Positions 2,235 to 55,561 of a DNA stretch of 64,000 nucleotides are shown here, piece after piece. The notes under the pieces are model-generated. The model saw nothing but the letters and a program-made list of their open reading frames with translations. It searched no databases and was not told where the DNA came from. A program made the translations under genes and the position numbers. Each line of letters starts with the position of its first letter. Positions within the stretch are counted from its first letter, which is position 1. The DNA is taken from positions 352,001 to 416,000 of the forward strand of contig CM000435.1 of the NCBI GenBank assembly GCA_000165345.1, in the 5' to 3' direction.

Positions 2235-3443
2235 ATGCAGCCAATTGGAGCATTTGGGATGGTTCCCCAATTAATAAATCCACCGGTGATGATGGTACCT
2301 GGAAGAAGCTCTGGGAAAGGTTCGAGTGGAAATTGTTGTGGTGGAAGTAATTCTAAAAGAAAAGGTTCCTGTGGTTCATGCGGAAGATGTTTTGGGTCAC
2401 TATTTATTATTCTATTTGCTTTTATATGTACCTCTTGTTGCTATGCTTATCCAATTTATAACTCCTTTACTAACCCAGAATACTTTAAGAAACAGGAGAC
2501 ACCAATTTGGACATGGGAAACGGCTTTTAGTAAAGCAAAAGAAATTGGCTACTCTATGTCATTAACCAAATCTCCAGAAGACGGAAATGGAACTTCTGAA
2601 AATACAGCAAGAAGTAGAGAAATGGATAGAGTTCAGTTCCTTAAATTGAATTCTACGGATGATAATAACAGAAATGCTAGTACATTTATTAACTTGGAGA
2701 ATATTTTAGGTCAGAATTCTTCCAAAATATTCTTCCCTCCATACAATAACACTTATATTTCTAGTCTTCTATATTCTAACCCAGAAAGGAAGCTAAGCAT
2801 AAGAGGAGGAGTAGGAGGATTGAACCTCGTAAAAGACTTAGCTATTGGAGTAAAGACTAAACAGATACCCAATAAATACTTCAACAAGGAGTACTGCGAT
2901 AGAGGAAGAGAAGAAAAATCGGAGGGAGTTTGGAATGAATTTTGCAACTATAAACATAATGTAACTAACTTAGAATGTATTGATATGATGAACGGGCCAG
3001 CAATATGTGTTGGAATTAGAAATCGTAAATATGAAGTGTTTTCAGTTTCAAAGCAATGCAAATTCATTGACCCCGAAATCCCTGTTGAAATCTTTCCAAC
3101 AATATCAGACATTTGCTATAGTGGAAAATACTTGAATAGTTCATTAGCTACATTTAATATTACTAAGCCAATATGTCCTTGCATGATTAGTTCAAGTCCA
3201 GTTGATAATTTAGAATTAAATGAAAATACGACAATAGCAACAACATTAACTGGCAATCAAAAAACAAGGGACTTTATTCTACAAGACAAAGCCAACCCAG
3301 AAACTCAGAAAATGCTCAGAGGGCCTGAAGGAATTTCAGACAGCTCTTCCAATTCTGGTTTAATTCATTCTACCGCCAAAACCCTTAATCATGCTATTCC
3401 GGGGAACAATACAAACTCTACACTAAAAATGCTCAATTCTTAG
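2235..3443 (+). CDS. Hypothetical membrane glycoprotein with a Gly/Cys-rich cytoplasmic N-terminus, one hydrophobic anchor and an N-glycosylation-rich, Cys-containing ectodomain
   Basis: 402-aa ORF. Cys cluster CCGGSNSKRKGSCGSCGRC, then the hydrophobic stretch LFIILFAFICTSCCYAYPIY. Many NxS/T sequons. No recognisable enzymatic motif. Confidence 0.5.
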   Translation: MQPIGAFGMVPQLINPPVMMVPGRSSGKGSSGNCCGGSNSKRKGSCGSCGRCFGSLFIILFAFICTSCCYAYPIYNSFTNPEYFKKQETPIWTWETAFSKAKEIGYSMSLTKSPEDGNGTSENTARSREMDRVQFLKLNSTDDNNRNASTFINLENILGQNSSKIFFPPYNNTYISSLLYSNPERKLSIRGGVGGLNLVKDLAIGVKTKQIPNKYFNKEYCDRGREEKSEGVWNEFCNYKHNVTNLECIDMMNGPAICVGIRNRKYEVFSVSKQCKFIDPEIPVEIFPTISDICYSGKYLNSSLATFNITKPICPCMISSSPVDNLELNENTTIATTLTGNQKTRDFILQDKANPETQKMLRGPEGISDSSSNSGLIHSTAKTLNHAIPGNNTNSTLKMLNS

Positions 3444-7900: not shown

Positions 7901-8026
7901 TTTTTAGATAGCTACAGTAAATATGACCACTATAGTATGTTCGAGAGTTCTCTTCTTTATAATATGATTAATACAATTATTAAAGGGCAAGAGTATTCTT
8001 TTGAGAACTCAACTAATGGAAAATAA
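4985..8026 (+). CDS. Large protein with a hydrophobic N-terminus, a CRAL-TRIO (Sec14-like) lipid-binding domain and a coiled-coil-rich C-terminal half
   Basis: 1013-aa ORF. The segment IDIIVDCRGFSLTNFS...VNQYPLRFNNIFIIQQ...FWLEETVKSVQV matches the Sec14 core pattern (DLKGxS...YPERxxxxxIINAP). N-terminus MMMTTRYSFLHALICIWLLFRII. An E2F-like TTGGCGCCGCGC site lies about 140 bp upstream. Confidence 0.55.
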   Translation: MMMTTRYSFLHALICIWLLFRIILEPVNGKNDSKFKFGPQHPPHDRTVITDFDNYAIQYCGLKDSVFNVAHCIFHAFVEILEERELKYEDYESVINLLLQGKNLASHQKLISSTNSCQSMVVPYIKFSKPKSSKSIMGVKISTKIEDYCKFAFRCISNGSNTLVKSKQSVMQEHLGKWIGTSLKENEGFGIVIASRLDFRISQLKVRSKEPNELLKIGCKLASESPSKRESLCMEIFNNKEICSIVAPYKLSFKGWSHPPIDPIQNKPFKFNPKTMIDEKIKSIVNIQVNEELPPYCMPQEIFSYKPPPETYTKEKKIIHFYTDISQTEKAIIDQFLMHFVINYGKIPRVIFDRRSRYAIEGWLSHKNKSPIISVHNSMYSLGRKLHYKDAMSGMLYSNSGYKKETYPYNLPQFKIFSVYSDKTHTFDISDTNPLISTCLKEGCAYFIGRSASMTPVLVIRASTIISIKSFKQSSASFLVMFLMEFAEKYLFFPGKVETIDIIVDCRGFSLTNFSTLLRIKPILLYWQDEGIVNQYPLRFNNIFIIQQNDIWTTLKDILGRFWLEETVKSVQVISNVSNNPKDNPDLKLLWRYISPHLIEIDIGGSRPKLQSGQFYPFKILPGPYKPFNTNLLDPKVTPTLSDWPSPDFNSPKNLYKLLPKNFFHSREKTLDGNENVAPINWKESKQLLNSIPKNLWPEMSTPTSEFKSEDNLENKADSKGSLVSENKGEKNDIEDPQDTQNRNDTSKTTIDTEKLTKSTPRSINTLSSGKDRDLLLQLLLTQKMLGNLKEFHSLRLEKIKNKRNLEEQCIQLATTHITFFSKLVDKAHIEILSKVAKMKQNKKAPNMPQVDKRLSIFEAYKDIASTLNLSRAKNMLSEKSLSYLEQIGRKISGIETKINKARQEIRILLKEDPSVLKEKASSAWNELLTALNELGELRKGMSDIEIKEKKINIRLRQMCEQLTSSMGVTKSFLDSYSKYDHYSMFESSLLYNMINTIIKGQEYSFENSTNGK

Positions 8027-8214
8027 TATCATTTTAATATTTGATTGATCTAATCCACATTATATTTAATATTATGCATAAATACTAATTATGGAAATAC
8101 CCCAAGCTTTATTAATTTTGCTACTGTTTATATTTGCAATTATAAGTATATCAAGTGATGGAAAATTACTTTGAAATGTTTATTAAGTACTTAGAACATT
8201 TTTTTTTTTTACAT

Positions 8215-8500
8215 TCACTTAGTTTTTTTAAGTTCTGGGCAATTTTTCAGCTCTTCCTGACTCTCTTCTCTAGCTCTATCCCTCTTCCCTGCTTCTCTAT
8301 TTTCTAAATTACCTGAAATCTAAGGTTAGTGCATGCAAACACCGGTGTACATGCACTTGCAAAAACTTGCAAATTTGCATGCAACTCCAGAAAGTAAATT
8401 GTCCAAATTTATACTTACCTTTAGACCAATTCAAAATATTATTTTCTACAGTTTTTACTATATTAGACAACTCAAACTCAATAACTTCAAATGACAACAT
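8215..8500 (-). CDS. Candidate two-exon micro-gene of about 59 aa (exon 1 8419-8500, intron 8313-8418, exon 2 8215-8312). Product unknown
   Basis: ATG at 8500. Exon 1 (MLSFEVIEFELSNIVKTVENNILNWSK) ends in phase 1 directly at a canonical GTAAGT donor. The in-phase acceptor TTTCAG continues the frame for 31 codons (GNLENREAGKRDRAREESQEELKNCPELKKTK) to a TGA stop. The intron would contain a GCATGCA motif cluster. Confidence 0.3.
8329..8393. promoter_or_regulatory. GCATGCAAACA / CACCGGTG / GCATGCA motif cluster
   Basis: gtgcatgcaaacaccggtgtacatgcacttgcaaaaacttgcaaatttgcatgcaac. It lies between two convergently oriented genes (or inside the candidate micro-gene intron). Confidence 0.4.
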
Positions 8501-8652
8501 TTCAATTCAAAAGATTAAAATACAAAGAACTATATGAATAAATAAACAAGTTAATTAAGACTAGAATCCTGGTAATTTCTGACATAACGATTGAGCGGCA
8601 AACCAATATCTAAAAAAAGAGTATTGAAAGAAATTGAGGTGAACTTTTGAAA

Positions 8653-9234
8653 CTAGTTATTTTCAAATTCACTTTCTATTTGTGAATCGTCAGTCTCCAG
8701 AGATTCAATTTCAAGGGATTCATCATCCTCTTGCTCAACTGCTTGACTATTTGAGGATATATATAAAGAAGTGGTATATACCATAGCCCAGCATTCAGTG
8801 GTTTCAGAAAAATTAGAGTCACTATAATTTCTAGTAATCTCAGAAGCAGCAGTCAATACTTCCTGAGTATCTGGAACAGGATCACTACAAACCTCAACTA
8901 ACTTTTGAATAGATTTATCCATTTGTTCGCCACTACATTCCTTTTCAAAGGATTCCTGTAATGACGCACATGCTTCATAAATTTGCTCTGGATTTTGAAC
9001 TTCCGAAGTTTCATTAGACAAATCAGCCCCCTCAAGTTCAACAACTTTCTCTGATGAAGGCTTTTGGCTTTCTTGATTATTGTCTTCTGCTTGTTTGTGG
9101 TCATTTTCCACAAGCTTAACAATATCTTCACCTTCTATTTCTTCAGCTCGACAAGAAAGAATTAGTAAGCCAAATATGAATACTAAAGTAGCAATGAAGA
9201 ACCACTTGAAACCCTTATTATAAATGTACGGCAT
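8653..9234 (-). CDS. Small acidic secreted protein, hypothetical
   Basis: 193-aa ORF with an N-terminal signal-anchor-like segment (FFIATLVFIFGLLILSC). The remainder is strongly acidic (E/D/S/Q-rich). Confidence 0.45.
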   Translation of the reverse strand: MPYIYNKGFKWFFIATLVFIFGLLILSCRAEEIEGEDIVKLVENDHKQAEDNNQESQKPSSEKVVELEGADLSNETSEVQNPEQIYEACASLQESFEKECSGEQMDKSIQKLVEVCSDPVPDTQEVLTAASEITRNYSDSNFSETTECWAMVYTTSLYISSNSQAVEQEDDESLEIESLETDDSQIESEFENN

Positions 9235-9354: not shown

Positions 9355-10434
9355 TTATGCCTCATTTAATAAAGTTGAAGGCTCCAATTTACACTTATTG
9401 ATACGTTGTTCAAGATTGTAAAGTCTCTTAATAGCGGTGTAAAGTTCAGAAATATCATCCCAATTAAAAAAGAAACAAGTAATGCCCGAAGTGACGGTAT
9501 TGAAGCATCTAATAATAGTGGCCCTCCCCCCTATGGTGATGTCTTTTCTAACAATAGCTGGAATTAAAAGTATAGTTGGTAGAAATCCAACAAGACTCCC
9601 CAAGCTTTCGCTGATTAAGCTGTATCTAAAAGAGTACAAATAAATATCACTATGAATCAACTTGAGCTCATCAACAAGAGTATCTTCTATTAGTGACAAG
9701 TTAAGTCTTGGAATACCTTCTTCACCCAAAATAAGCTGTTTTCTAAATTCAGCTTCAACAATCTCCTTTCGCATGATTTTAGAGCTCATTTTCCTGGATG
9801 TGAAATAAACCCCAAGAATCGAAACTGAAATCGATATAGCAAGATAAGAAATAAGAGAATATTCAAATCCACTTGGAAACGGTGGAATTCCTGAAACTTT
9901 CCTACTATGTTCAATCAAAATTGGAATGTGAACCAGACTTCTTGAAATAGAAATCACAACTTTAAAGAAAAGATTCAAAATAAGCTTCAAAACCTGAAGA
10001 GTATCTTCCTGGATTCTTTGAGACACTCCTTCCACTCCTTTAATGAATCTCCAATTATCAAATAAGTATTTTGACTCATAATTACGCCAATTAAGAAGTA
10101 TTACTGTTAGGAAGAAATTACTTAATACTCTAAATACACAGAGGAATATGAGGAATAATGGCAGATTTAGCATTTTTTCCCTTATTTCATCCTCATAACT
10201 CTCCCCAGGTTTTGAGTTGAACGAACTGACCAAAAGATTGTATATTTCAGAGAACCATTTTGTCACTTTCAAATGAAGCTTTGAATATTGCACATTCAGA
10301 ATGATTAACAAGAAACAGTAAAACCAAGTACTTGCAGAGTACCTACTGGAGAAAAGAAATTTCCTAATCATATTTCCATTTTTTTGTCTTAATGGCAACT
10401 TCGATTTACAAAATGTCAAGTCGTATAGCGCCAA
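9355..10434 (-). CDS. Six-TM membrane protein resembling the transmembrane domain of ABCD/SbmA-BacA-type transporters, with no nucleotide-binding domain (paralog A)
   Basis: 359 aa with six hydrophobic helices. The loop after TM2 carries NWRFIKGVEGVSQRIQEDT (compare the ABCD/SbmA N(P)DQR(I/L)T(Q/E)D motif). After TM4 comes EAEFRKQLILGEEGI (compare the ABCD EGE(F/Y)R...SEEIAFY motif). No Walker A/B or ABC signature motifs downstream. Confidence 0.6.
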   Translation of the reverse strand: MALYDLTFCKSKLPLRQKNGNMIRKFLFSSRYSASTWFYCFLLIILNVQYSKLHLKVTKWFSEIYNLLVSSFNSKPGESYEDEIREKMLNLPLFLIFLCVFRVLSNFFLTVILLNWRNYESKYLFDNWRFIKGVEGVSQRIQEDTLQVLKLILNLFFKVVISISRSLVHIPILIEHSRKVSGIPPFPSGFEYSLISYLAISISVSILGVYFTSRKMSSKIMRKEIVEAEFRKQLILGEEGIPRLNLSLIEDTLVDELKLIHSDIYLYSFRYSLISESLGSLVGFLPTILLIPAIVRKDITIGGRATIIRCFNTVTSGITCFFFNWDDISELYTAIKRLYNLEQRINKCKLEPSTLLNEA

Positions 10435-10519: not shown

Positions 10520-11521
10520 ATGATTCTATTCAGTGGCCTCAGCAGAAGATCTCTTATCAAGTTGTTTCTCTTTTTGGCTGCAATTTCCGCATGTTCAGTA
10601 CTTCTGTTGTACTTGGAGTTTTCTGGGAACTCTCAACTTAAAACATTTGGAGATGTGTTACAAGCAGCAGTTAAAGATAGGTCAAGTGTTAGTGCTTCAG
10701 ACCTGTACACTTCGTTTTTTGCATTGATTTCTTACAAGCTAGCCGTTGTATTTTTGAAGTCGGTATCTTCATTTCTGTCCAAGAAGAGTATTTTCTTTTG
10801 GAGACTGCAACTAACAGAGTATTTCTTAGAGAACTGGGAGAATATTTACTTAATTGAGGGAGTGTCTCAGAGGATTCAAGAAGATACTATGAGATATTGT
10901 AGACTTTTTGAGAAGTTTTCAATTTTTGTTGTACAGGATTTATTCAAGCTTTTTATATACTTGCCTTTATTACTTGATCTAAGTAAGCATATAACAAGAA
11001 CATGGTTTATACCCAATACAAGGCATTTATTACTTGTTTTGATTATAATTAACTCCATAATTGGAACTTCCATTATTATTTTCCCAAGTAAATACTTATC
11101 TAGGCTCGTTTATAATATAGATAAGGAAGAAGCTGCATTTAGAAAGAACTTGGTTTTATTTGAACTTGAAGAAAGAGACTTTTCTAACTTCGACTTTGAT
11201 GGGAATTACATTAGTGTGGATAATACTCACAGAAGCTACTACAGAAGGTATTATTTTATTAAAATCCTCCAATTATTGCATTTTCGCCTGTCGATGATCA
11301 CTTATTGGTTGTTTGCTCATCCATCAATGGTACCTCCTTATACTCTAGGTCTTCTTAAACAGACAATGCATGCATTTGATGAAGTCTCATCAGTATTTAA
11401 CTTTGTGGTATCTCATTTCAAAAGCTTAGTAGAGTACATTGCAGTTTTTTTGAGATTAAATTTAATGGTTAAGCAAACTATAAAAGCTAAAGAAACCGAT
11501 AAATCTGGGATTTATCATTAA
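10520..11521 (+). CDS. Six-TM ABCD/SbmA-BacA-like transmembrane-domain protein with no NBD (paralog B). Transcribed divergently from paralog A
   Basis: 333 aa. Motifs shared with paralog A: ENWENIYLIEGVSQRIQEDTMR and EEAAFRKNLVLFELEE. Same helix order. Start codon only 85 bp from the paralog A start, on the opposite strand. Confidence 0.6.
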   Translation: MILFSGLSRRSLIKLFLFLAAISACSVLLLYLEFSGNSQLKTFGDVLQAAVKDRSSVSASDLYTSFFALISYKLAVVFLKSVSSFLSKKSIFFWRLQLTEYFLENWENIYLIEGVSQRIQEDTMRYCRLFEKFSIFVVQDLFKLFIYLPLLLDLSKHITRTWFIPNTRHLLLVLIIINSIIGTSIIIFPSKYLSRLVYNIDKEEAAFRKNLVLFELEERDFSNFDFDGNYISVDNTHRSYYRRYYFIKILQLLHFRLSMITYWLFAHPSMVPPYTLGLLKQTMHAFDEVSSVFNFVVSHFKSLVEYIAVFLRLNLMVKQTIKAKETDKSGIYH

Positions 11522-28310: not shown

Positions 28311-28400
28311 CACATTACGTGTAAGTAAGTAATGTACATGCATGCATGCGAATGCAAGGTGTTGCAAGCATTTGCATGTGAAGTTGAAATATGTACGTAA
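28311..28400. promoter_or_regulatory. GCATGCATGC / ATTACGTG / GCATGTG cluster upstream of PPIP5K
   Basis: cacattacgtgtaagtaagtaatgtacatgcatgcatgcgaatgcaaggtgttgcaagcatttgcatgtg. Confidence 0.5.
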
Positions 28401-34646: not shown

Positions 34647-34880
34647 ATGATGCACACTAAATTAAAAGTAGGTAAGGTATTATTTAACAAGGAAATTTTT
34701 GACAAGAAGAGAATAGGAAGGTTTTGAGGTGAAGAAGAAAGAAATAATAATAGTGGAGAGGAGTAGATATTTAATTATGGGTGGAGTAGATTAAATTGGT
34801 AAGAAATGATATAGTTTAGAGCAGTAATAAAAAGCTGCATGTATGTATGTATGCATGCATGCATGCAAATAATAGTATTG

Positions 34881-53626: not shown

Positions 53627-54397
53627 ATTTACATCTTCCCCATAGCTGTTATTTTCATAATAGATCTGGTTGTTGTATAANNTGCCCGAACTAAATTATT
53701 TCATTGAAGTNNTTCTCATTTTCTCGAGGGAAAACGTAATCAGGAATAGCATCCTCCTCCATTCTAAACTGGTTATCTTTCTTCATTATAAATAGGATCG
53801 GAAAGCTTCATAGAAATCTCAAAAGAATCCATCGTACTGCCACAATCAATATTTGAAGACATTTTCCCCCATCAACCTTTTAACCTCTATTAATATTAAT
53901 TAATAAATGTGAATATTAATTAAATTTCAGCTTCTATAAAGGCTATACTATTCTTAATACCAAAATACTTTGTACTTCGTTTCTTATATGCTTTTTACTA
54001 AGATCCCAAAAACATACATATGCATTTATAAATGTATATTTAATGTTAATTAAAACTATACTTCAATTCCATCAACACCAATAATTTTGAGGAGTAACTA
54101 GATTTAACACAAAATTTAAATTGTGAAGAATCTAACTAAGTCTGTGTTTTTACTCCTTATTTTTTCTTGGTTCTCAAAAAACTTTAATCCATATACCTTT
54201 GACTTTTTTGCCAAGCAACCTATTCTCCTCCCACGGCGCTTACATGACTAGACAAACTTAAATAGTAAGTAATATTCAAATTAACTTGATATTGTTCTTT
54301 TTTTTAAAAAAAAAAAAAAAAGGATATAATTACCTCTTTCAAAAACTTATTTTTTTAAAAATTTTGCACCTATGTTTCATAGCTACTTTAATTACAC

Positions 54398-54437
54398 TAC
54401 GTGGAACCAGTTACATGCATGCAAACACGTGTTGAGT
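54398..54437. promoter_or_regulatory. ACGTGGAACCAGTTACATGCATGCAAACACGTG composite element
   Basis: It shares ACCAGTT plus GCATGCAAACA plus CACGTG with the AspRS upstream element. About 800 bp upstream of the 1458-aa gene. Confidence 0.5.
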
Positions 54438-54526
54438 TTTTTTACCATATTCCGAGCATTCATGTGGACAAACAACGTTAGAGTAAAAGAATAATAGTAA
54501 TTTAAATTTAAACAATATTATTTTCT

Positions 54527-55561
54527 TATGGAATCCAATTGATTTCAGGGCGTCGAGTTTTTCTTAGGAATTCATTGCATTTGTTGAAATGATCACAGCC
54601 TAGATTCATTTTTTTAGTTAAAATAGGTATTTGAAAGTATATTATAAGTTAGCCTTTTGATAACTTTTGTTATATTATAAAGGAAAACTCACCCATAAAC
54701 TTCTTTTGTGATAATGGAGAGGGATGAGCTGATTCTAGCACCAAATGTTTCTTTTTGCAAACGCTCGCGGCCTTAGCTTGGGCGGACCTCCCCCAAAGCA
54801 TAAATACTATAGGTCTTTCTAATTTATTAATTTTTGATATAACCATGGATGTAAAGATATCCCNACCCTGAACGATAAAAAAAAGTTAGTAGAAAATTTC
54901 AGTATTCAATAAATTTGTTNGNTTTCTAAACACTGTAGTTATTACTGTCAAACTTACATAAGTCTTNGTGGGACATTGGCTTCCCTTCTTCTACAGAAAG
55001 TAAAGAGTTTAGAAGGAATACTCCCTGTTCAGCCCACGATGATAGGTCTCCATGACCAGGATTACCTTTACCTATTTCTTTATAAATATTTCTTAAACTA
55101 GGAGGAACTGGAACGCCCTTCGGAACTGAGAAACTAAGTCCCATTGCCTGTCCAGGTTGGTGATATGGGTCTTGACCCAAGATTACCACTGAAATCTTGT
55201 TCAATGGAGTAGCTTTGAAACAACTAAACATTTTGTCACTGGGTGGGTACACTTTAGCATAATTCCTTCTTTCTTGAACCTTTTTCATACACTTCACAAA
55301 ATAGGGCTTCCTTAATTCATCTTTAAGGGCCTCAAACCACTCATCTCCAAAGTATTCCCTCAACTCCGACTCACTCGGATAGTACTCTTGATTCTCTTCC
55401 TCAGCCTCCTTACTTGATTTAATTTCTGTTTCTTTAACGCATATTCTCCTATTCTTCACTGCTGAATCTCTATTCAAGTCACTCCCACACTCAATACTGT
55501 CCTTGCAAATGTTTTCTGCACTCCTTTTATTCAAATAAGACAGTATTGACGTTTGACTCAT
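54527..55561 (-). CDS. UNG: Uracil-DNA glycosylase (family 1 UNG), multi-exon. The model is disturbed by ambiguous bases
   Basis: Motifs KVYPPSDKMFSCF, VVILGQDPYHQPGQAMGLSFSV and GVFLLNSLLSV. After four n positions (54884-54967) and a GTAAGT donor near 54935, the frame resumes (DIFTSMVISKINKLERPIVFMLWGRSAQ...LESAHPSPLS). A final GTGAGT intron (about 54600-54690) precedes the last exon GCDHFNKCNEFLRK...INWIP, which ends at the stop codon at 54527-54529. TTGGCGCCGAAA lies about 45 bp upstream. Confidence 0.65.

Follow-up and report, generated by a model that had tools for sequence, protein, structure and literature searches.

A conserved palindrome-rich core in the intron of a genus-restricted Cryptosporidium micro-gene: a candidate ApiAP2-type regulatory module

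The spacer between two convergent genes on chromosome 7 of Cryptosporidium parvum contains a two-exon micro-gene on the minus strand, and the single intron of this gene carries a palindrome-rich core of 60 nucleotides (nt). The spacer belongs to a stretch of 64,000 nt (GenBank assembly GCA_000165345.1, contig CM000435.1, positions 352,001 to 416,000 of the forward strand), called the window below, in which positions are counted from the first letter. Comparison between species strongly supports the micro-gene as a genuine, independently conserved protein-coding gene of the genus Cryptosporidium. The reading that we favour, at a probability of roughly 55%, is that the micro-gene would be expressed from an upstream E2F/CAAT promoter, with the intron core as a platform that binds ApiAP2-type factors at the DNA level and modulates this gene too. 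A sequence-only reading of the window had called this spacer unlikely to be inert, which proved correct, as it holds both a coding gene and a constrained motif cluster.

The evidence for the gene is comparative. Syntenic loci were retrieved through the neighbouring CRAL/TRIO gene from eight species beyond the annotated C. parvum, C. hominis and C. meleagridis, namely chipmunk genotype I, C. ubiquitum, C. canis, C. felis, C. ryanae, C. bovis, C. andersoni and Cryptosporidium sp. L015 (from a public Logan sequencing run), and a twelfth species, Cryptosporidium sp. L016 (Logan run SRR31861040), was added later and read by eye. The orthologue could be rebuilt in all 12 species (the 11 and L016), and the order of the neighbouring genes is unchanged in all of their loci. 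The exon 1 peptide is recognisable in every orthologue, including that of C. andersoni (MESWDYIEIDVGDFVKDIERDILAWLDG), with E19, I22, W25 and one Arg as invariant residues. A GT[AG]AGT donor lies in phase 1 at the same position in the 10 modelled intron-bearing species and in L016. The introns of these 11 species measure 106, 106, 96, 106, 106, 107, 121, 117, 278, 264 and 106 nt, the last being that of L016 (1583-1688 in its locus), and despite lengths that differ modulo 3, splicing always restores a related exon 2 frame (...KR.R...LK...). The introns of C. ryanae (278 nt) and C. bovis (264 nt) are retained without a conserved core. In the gastric species C. andersoni (L014 5615-5824, minus strand) there is no intron, and the gene is a continuous open reading frame (ORF) of 69 amino acids (aa), which the gene calls of that assembly include. 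The sequence-only reading had proposed a conserved reading frame in related species as a check; the frame is conserved in these species, and the splice is needed to keep it.

Substitution patterns agree with this picture. By the pairwise Nei-Gojobori method, the ratio of non-synonymous to synonymous substitution rates (dN/dS) is mostly 0.09-0.2 in exon 1 (full range 0.09-0.44) and 0.3-0.6 in exon 2. Third codon positions are the most variable in exon 1 (22 sites, as against 14 and 10 at the other two), and the interspecies insertions and deletions (indels) of exon 2 are all multiples of 3. Taken together, the constant phase, the kept spliced frame, dN/dS below 1 and indels in multiples of 3 argue that the gene is truly coding and spliced. 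Could the ORF and its splice signals nevertheless have arisen by chance in a non-coding spacer, with the public gene models being over-predicted? Comparable two-exon models appear in 20 of 2000 Markov-1 simulated spacers (1%), searches of Pfam, the PDB and proteins from outside the genus offer no homologue of the product, and 5 of the 6 substitutions between C. parvum and C. hominis are non-synonymous, a count that weighs against a coding gene and yet is so small that the pair is uninformative for dN/dS. Chance would have to contend with an exon 1 peptide conserved genus-wide even where the intron is missing, with a spliced frame that survives changes of intron length, with dN/dS of 0.1-0.4 at informative distances and indels in threes, and with a conserved E2F and CAAT promoter upstream. 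This explanation is highly improbable, and the comparative data leave it close to refuted.

The strongest conservation in the spacer is found inside the intron. The core (8384-8325) aligns nearly gap-free in nine species, from C. parvum to C. felis. With C. parvum as the reference, identities to C. canis, L015 and C. felis are 77, 82 and 77% in the core, 72, 66 and 61% in exon 1, 44, 50 and 35% in exon 2, 31, 21 and 31% in the 5' half of the intron, and 18-38% in the flanks, at distances where synonymous sites are saturated (proportion of synonymous differences, pS, 0.7-0.85). When about 9 kb of synteny is compared by blastn, no other non-coding segment still matches these three species, and the match of the core has the highest identity of all (79-86%). 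Judged by these identities, the intron core is under stronger apparent constraint than the coding sequence of the micro-gene. The sequence-only reading had placed a GCATGCA/CACCGGTG cluster inside the intron, where it is indeed present at the positions given, and had treated the gene and a motif-driven non-coding transcript as alternatives; the coding side of this choice is upheld, whereas the either/or falls away, because the cluster is separately under stronger constraint. An nhmmer search with a profile of the core, run on the window and on all loci, revealed no further copy in the window and no core at the locus of C. ryanae, C. bovis or C. andersoni; otherwise it returned weak similarity only, to ordinary TGCATGCA promoters.

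Each conserved block of the core is a palindrome or a repeat of one, the palindromes being TGCATGCA, TTGCAA and CACCGGTG, and TGCAAG occurs twice (Table 1). The nine-species pattern runs from GCATGCA through a spacer of 4-7 nt to TGCAAR and TTTYTGCAAGTGCATG, then through a spacer of 3-5 nt to CCGGYGTTTGCATGCA and the branch site, so that the blocks are parted by short spacers of variable length; its composite form is TGCAAGTGCATG-N(3-5)-CCGGYGTTTGCATGCA. The 3' TGCATGCA is intact in 8 of the 9 core species and reads ACATGCA in C. ubiquitum. In L016 the core is conserved with CCGGCG replacing CCGGTG, which means that the T of CCGGTG is not invariant. Two of the motifs are over-represented in the window: GCATGCA occurs 28 times against 3.7 expected (about 7-fold), mostly in non-coding sequence, and CACCGGTG twice against 0.03 expected. 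The other CACCGGTG copy, at 2281-2288, lies 46 nt inside an ORF (2235-3443, plus strand) and has no GCATGC nearby.

Table 1. Positions of the micro-gene, its intron core, its predicted promoter and the flanking genes in the window
Feature	Position	Strand	Details
CRAL/TRIO gene, 1013 aa	stop at 8026	+	left neighbour of the spacer
Spacer	8027-8652		
Exon 2	8215..8312	-	split Gly codon + 31 codons; TGA 8217-8215; encodes (G)NLENREAGKRDRAREESQEELKNCPELKKTK
Intron, single, phase-1	8313..8418	-	106 nt
Acceptor TTTCAG	at 8313	-	
Branch-like site CTAAC	8329-8325	-	12 nt ahead of the acceptor
Donor GTAAGT	8418-8413	-	
Conserved intron core, palindrome-rich	8325..8384	.	60 nt; 3' part of the intron
Core block TTGCATGCA	8384-8376	-	gene sense
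Core block TTTGCAAG	8374-8367	-	gene sense
Core block TTTTTGCAAG	8366-8357	-	gene sense
Core block GTGCATG	8356-8350	-	gene sense; half-site, CATGCAC at 8350-8356
Core block CACCGGTG	8347-8340	-	gene sense; CACCGGTG at 8340-8347
Core block TTTGCATGCA	8339-8330	-	gene sense; followed by the branch site
Exact TGCATGCA octamers	8330-8337 and 8376-8383		
Exon 1	8419..8500	-	ATG at 8500; 27 codons + 1 nt; encodes MLSFEVIEFELSNIVKTVENNILNWSK(G)
Upstream promoter block	8590..8602	-	E2F-type TTTGCCGC 8602-8595, then CAAT-box-like TCAAT 8594-8590
Secreted-protein gene, 193 aa	stop at 8653	-	right neighbour of the spacer, same strand as the micro-gene

What kind of element is this core? Its vocabulary is that of a known class of promoter motif. 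The palindromic AP2_1 consensus, [T/C]GCATGC[A/G], is matched by the two exact TGCATGCA octamers, accompanied by the GTGCATG half-site, and TGCATGCA is the AP2_1 motif, to which the ApiAP2 domains of cgd2_3490 and cgd1_3520 bind in vitro (PMC3734150, PMC4117751). Palindromic blocks are also what factors that bind DNA as dimers would be expected to recognise. By sequence, enrichment and conservation the core motif is assigned to the AP2_1 class, and it departs from that class in not lying upstream of the gene. Furthermore, the position of the motif changes between species in a regular way. GCATGC is solely intronic, at +113 to +175 from the ATG, in 9 of 9 core species (L016 read by eye), and solely upstream of the ATG in 3 of 3 core-less species, at -21 in C. 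ryanae, -21 in C. bovis and -94 in C. andersoni, where the upstream motif is GTGCATGCAC. Since the motif is found either upstream or in the intron, it appears tied to the micro-gene, and the pattern reads as binding-site turnover or relocation.

Other parts of the window place the same words in ordinary promoters. At 28339-28376 (plus strand), in an ordinary upstream region that lies 90-125 nt ahead of the ATG (28465) of a 1014-aa ORF, stand ACATGCATGCATGC, GAATGCAAGG, TGTTGCAAGC and ATTTGCATG; this region shares both the vocabulary and the order of the core (TGCATGCATGC, two TGCAAG, TTTGCATG), which suggests TGCAAG as a recurrent partner motif of AP2_1. In addition, a near-copy of the CCGGTG-TTTGCATGCA block is found at 54416-54432 (minus strand), in intergenic sequence between a uracil-DNA-glycosylase-like gene and a 1458-aa gene; it reads ACACGTGTTTGCATGCA against ACCGGTGTTTGCATGCA, with two mismatches and with CACGTG replacing CACCGGTG. 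The window also contains, at 34852-34867, an intergenic run of three overlapping TGCATGCA octamers (ATGCATGCATGCATGCA).

Upstream of the ATG, the micro-gene has what its predicted motifs, an E2F-type site and a CAAT box, indicate to be a normal Cryptosporidium promoter. The E2F-type TTTGCCGC stands at -101, about 101 nt before the ATG, and about 50 nt beyond the stop of the upstream gene on the same strand. E2F sites are typical of spacers within C. parvum polycistrons (PMC11761812), and E2F and CAAT-box motifs are two of the established over-represented motifs of C. parvum promoters (PMC3734150, PMC12246861). The site agrees with a TTTSSCGC-type E2F/DP consensus. TTSSCGC is found at 25 places in the window where 3.3 would be expected (about 7-fold), and one of these copies is at 8595-8601. 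All 11 species examined, and L016 as well, have an E2F-type site between -55 and -133. Its variants, TTTGCCGC, TTGGCGC, TTTCCCGC and TTGGCGCCAA, differ at the degenerate S positions alone, and across species the site is usually followed by CCAAT or TCAAT.

In the reading that we favour, the E2F/CAAT promoter would drive the micro-gene, and the intron core would be a DNA-level binding platform for ApiAP2-type factors. Factors bound to the core would superimpose stage-specific regulation on what the E2F promoter of the same micro-gene provides, and the core would thereby replace the role of the upstream GCATGC seen in C. ryanae, C. bovis and C. andersoni. Both the binding of factors to the core and the identity of the micro-gene as its target are what we infer here. 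More tentatively, the intron may persist for the sake of its 60-nt module, the AP2-type element having moved from upstream into the intron in the ancestor of the C. felis-to-C. parvum clade; we lean slightly away from this fuller reading.

Several points weigh against the core being a site cluster for ApiAP2-type factors. We know of no factor for CACCGGTG or TGCAAG, and AP2_1 sites are defined as lying upstream of the regulated gene, a position that they do not occupy in the 9 core species. AP2_1 sites are known upstream of genes, not in introns (PMC3734150), and sporozoite peaks from the assay for transposase-accessible chromatin with sequencing (ATAC-seq) are without AP2 motifs (PMC11761812). 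The spacing within the core is nearly fixed and its identity very high, both beyond what a usual site cluster shows, and they would also fit an RNA-level element; these are the main facts that a site-cluster model explains least well. As all blocks are palindromic, hairpins form automatically, and tests of structure leave room for a role as RNA. Finally, the module could serve a different transcript.

If a different transcript is served, the core might be the internal, possibly bidirectional, promoter of a separate non-coding RNA, either antisense to the 3' end of the CRAL/TRIO gene or antisense to exon 1 and the 193-aa gene. The background of the species gives this idea some appeal, for AP2_1 (BGCATGCAH) is one of the two motifs that rank highest in the 100 nt preceding C. 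parvum long non-coding RNAs (lncRNAs). Most of these lncRNAs run antisense, with their starts close to gene 3' ends, and they are often expressed from shared bidirectional promoters (PMC7840661). The palindromic motifs are free of orientation, and the order and vocabulary of the core are the same as in the normal upstream promoter at 28339-28376. However, 12 probes over 7975-8690 had no match among the lncRNAs up to about Cp_lnc_354 of the 396-lncRNA set of Li et al. 2021, which is a weak negative. Past the core, the only conserved sequence on either strand is that of the micro-gene's own exons, and when GCATGC is not intronic it stays at the 5' region of the micro-gene, which ties it to this gene and not to its neighbours. 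We consider a separate non-coding transcript unlikely.

Alternatively, the core may act as RNA, either as an intron-derived small RNA or as an element of the pre-mRNA that controls splicing (UGCAUG-type protein-binding sites or a hairpin by the branch point). Small RNAs are reported to derive from 23 C. parvum introns (Li et al. 2022, PMC9465071), and such RNAs have been suggested to keep introns alive in an intron-poor genome (Li et al., PMC9465071). Conservation above that of the host exons and near-fixed spacing are typical of intron-hosted RNA genes, the core adjoins the branch site, and its predicted hairpins have 97.5% of cells paired and one compensatory pair. This pairing is nonetheless the trivial outcome of repeated palindromes. 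Most pairs never vary, the covariation score (RNAalifold/pair-count test) was reached by 175 of 500 shuffles, the z-score in single-sequence folding is -1.07, and C. hominis, chipmunk genotype I and C. felis each have uncompensated mismatches in the stems. Searches of the intron gave no Rfam match, even at E up to 10, and neither a RUGAUGA/CUGA (C/D) nor an ACA-box (H/ACA) layout is visible in its sequence. Moreover, C. ryanae and C. bovis have an intron at the same position without the core, so the core is not needed for splicing as such. On balance a role as RNA is rather improbable.

A last possibility is that the core is a distal element of the 3' untranslated region (UTR), or a termination element, of the convergent CRAL/TRIO gene, read on the plus strand. 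The core does lie about 300 nt beyond the CRAL/TRIO stop on the sense strand, and gene order is constant in all species. Such an element would require a 3' UTR running across the entire exon 2, and the 190 nt between the CRAL/TRIO stop and the stop of the micro-gene are not conserved. In addition, C. ryanae, C. bovis and C. andersoni lack the core even though their CRAL/TRIO gene is conserved. This explanation is scarcely credible.

The structure of the micro-gene itself is laid out in Table 1, and it has a start, a stop and canonical splice signals throughout. The sequence-only reading had described a minus-strand ATG exon of 27 codons abutting GTAAGT, in a spacer between two convergent genes, followed by a 106-nt intron and by 31 more codons in a restored frame; every coordinate of this model is right, and so are the two convergent ends. 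An in-frame stop precedes the ATG by two codons. The product of 59 aa (about 7 kDa) is MLSFEVIEFELSNIVKTVENNILNWSKGNLENREAGKRDRAREESQEELKNCPELKKTK, with MLSFEVIEFELSNIVK and TVENNILNWSK among its peptides and TVENNILNWSKGNLENR spanning the exon junction. The same reading had called the protein basic, which its isoelectric point of 5.46 and net charge of -1 contradict. Two other gene models were discarded. An unspliced read-through ORF of 63 aa (8309-8500) meets an instant stop in C. hominis, where the intron starts GGT AAG TAA, and its frame is also shifted by indels in other species. An alternative acceptor, the AG of a TGCAAG 53 nt into the intron, yields tails in differing frames that are unrelated across species.

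The gene call is not new, as it is already public as a hypothetical protein, and the claim that the gene is unannotated is true solely for the oldest annotation. An identical 59-aa product is deposited as WRK33302.1 (cpbgf_7001365) and QOY40449.1 (CPATCC_0007100), with UniRef A0A7S7RF34. The flanking 193-aa protein is matched in every residue on chromosome 7 assemblies of C. parvum. In one of them, CP141124.1 from the CpBGF telomere-to-telomere assembly, a 59-residue gene is called at the identical coordinates (8500-8215 corresponding to L001 3735-4020). The micro-gene and cpbgf_7001365/CPATCC_0007100 are thus the same gene. Annotated 59-aa orthologues that share the two-exon layout exist in C. 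hominis UdeA01 (LN877953.1, 92% identical) and C. meleagridis (cmbei_7001365, 86% identical). The deposited gene ranges of 286 nt (C. parvum BGF), 286 nt (C. hominis) and 276 nt (C. meleagridis) imply the same intron boundaries, giving introns of 106 and 96 nt in the latter two. By contrast, the 2004 Iowa II protein set includes no accession for the micro-gene, while it gives the neighbouring gene an EAK accession. The locus is of the cgd7_1365 type, an identifier whose final 5 fits later insertion between cgd7_1360 and cgd7_1370 under the naming scheme set out in PMC12179316, and the CpBGF and IOWA-ATCC annotations were generally curated with RNA-seq and Iso-seq (PMC12179316). No mention of cgd7_1365 or cpbgf_7001365 was found in the literature searched. 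The orthologue is intact yet uncalled in chipmunk genotype I, C. ubiquitum, C. canis, C. felis, C. ryanae and C. bovis (L008-L013) and in L015. What the comparative work adds is support for the gene as real, spliced and genus-restricted, and the observation that the annotations deposited for at least six other Cryptosporidium species lack it.

The protein divides into two parts along the exon boundary. Its N-terminal half is acidic, amphipathic and conserved, with the invariant Trp, and AlphaFold2 predicts a helix at residues 12-26 with a predicted local distance difference test (pLDDT) score of about 89. The tail encoded by exon 2 is of mixed charge, fast-evolving and weakly conserved except for the KR.R patch and the C-terminal LK, and a second helix at residues 33-50 is predicted there at low confidence (pLDDT about 57). 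The conserved N-terminal helix may be a docking peptide for a partner protein. A possible likeness of the helix to centrin-binding or Atg8-interacting motifs, to APC13 or to CDC26 was considered and is not claimed; such patterns are generic for amphipathic helices. As to relatives, the 11 orthologues have no Pfam match, and neither a sequence and profile search of the PDB nor a Foldseek search of the AlphaFold2 model against the PDB gave a match. A word search of 5.8 billion proteins, also carried out with a profile of 11 species, returned Cryptosporidium proteins only, and an exhaustive HMMER search of 1.84 billion representatives found outside the genus only two artefacts. These two matches (P0020 and P0021) are tandem-repeat translations that repeatedly match a stretch of 17-24 residues, and they were discarded. 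By these searches the protein is genus-restricted, with no known family or relative outside Cryptosporidium.

Two further features of the window lie apart from the micro-gene. A pair of adjacent divergent genes, at 9355-10434 (minus strand) and 10520-11521 (plus strand), both belong to the SbmA/BacA-like family (PF05992; E = 2e-38 and 5e-49), which is best known from bacterial peptide transporters. N characters occur at about 53680-54990, some of them within the uracil-DNA-glycosylase-like multi-exon gene, and they indicate an assembly of draft quality.

Cis-regulation in Cryptosporidium is a subject of little experimental knowledge, and the core is short, sharply bounded, built on the best-characterised ApiAP2 motif and conserved beyond synonymous saturation. 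If the intron is indeed kept for a regulatory module that moved into it from upstream, the core would be the first conserved intronic cis-regulatory module, whether enhancer or internal promoter, described in Cryptosporidium, and the composite site TGCAAG-GTGCATG-CCGGTG-TGCATGCA could be used to seek partner factors. The 60-mer is a convenient test case for three questions: do AP2 sites function when they follow the start codon, by which proteins are TGCAAG and CACCGGTG recognised, and are some of the few introns of this compact genome (roughly 1,400 in C. parvum) kept for their regulatory content?

Compared with the AP2_1 sites of Cryptosporidium and other Apicomplexa (ApiAP2 domains cgd2_3490, cgd1_3520 and PF14_0633), the core shares two exact octamers and a half-site, and its sites are likewise enriched about 7-fold in the window, mostly non-coding and accompanied by an E2F site, as in the literature. 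It differs in that its sites are intronic, 113-175 nt downstream of the ATG instead of upstream, and form, together with TGCAAG repeats and CACCGGTG, a fixed arrangement of 60 nt. This arrangement is also conserved far more than the ordinary promoters of the same region. The var gene intron of Plasmodium falciparum has promoter or regulatory activity that influences its host gene; var introns are about 1 kb long and AT-rich, belong to a multigene family under epigenetic silencing and do not consist of TGCATGCA palindromes. They offer the nearest functional analogy, and they differ from the present intron in size, composition and context. Like the intron-hosted small non-coding RNAs of C. parvum (PMC9465071), the core is a short conserved intronic element of a compact genome that may explain why its intron is retained; for the core, however, no structural covariation, small nucleolar RNA boxes or Rfam match was found. 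Set beside these systems, the conserved intronic module holds modest interest, as a seemingly undescribed case in which a known class of motif occupies an unusual position.

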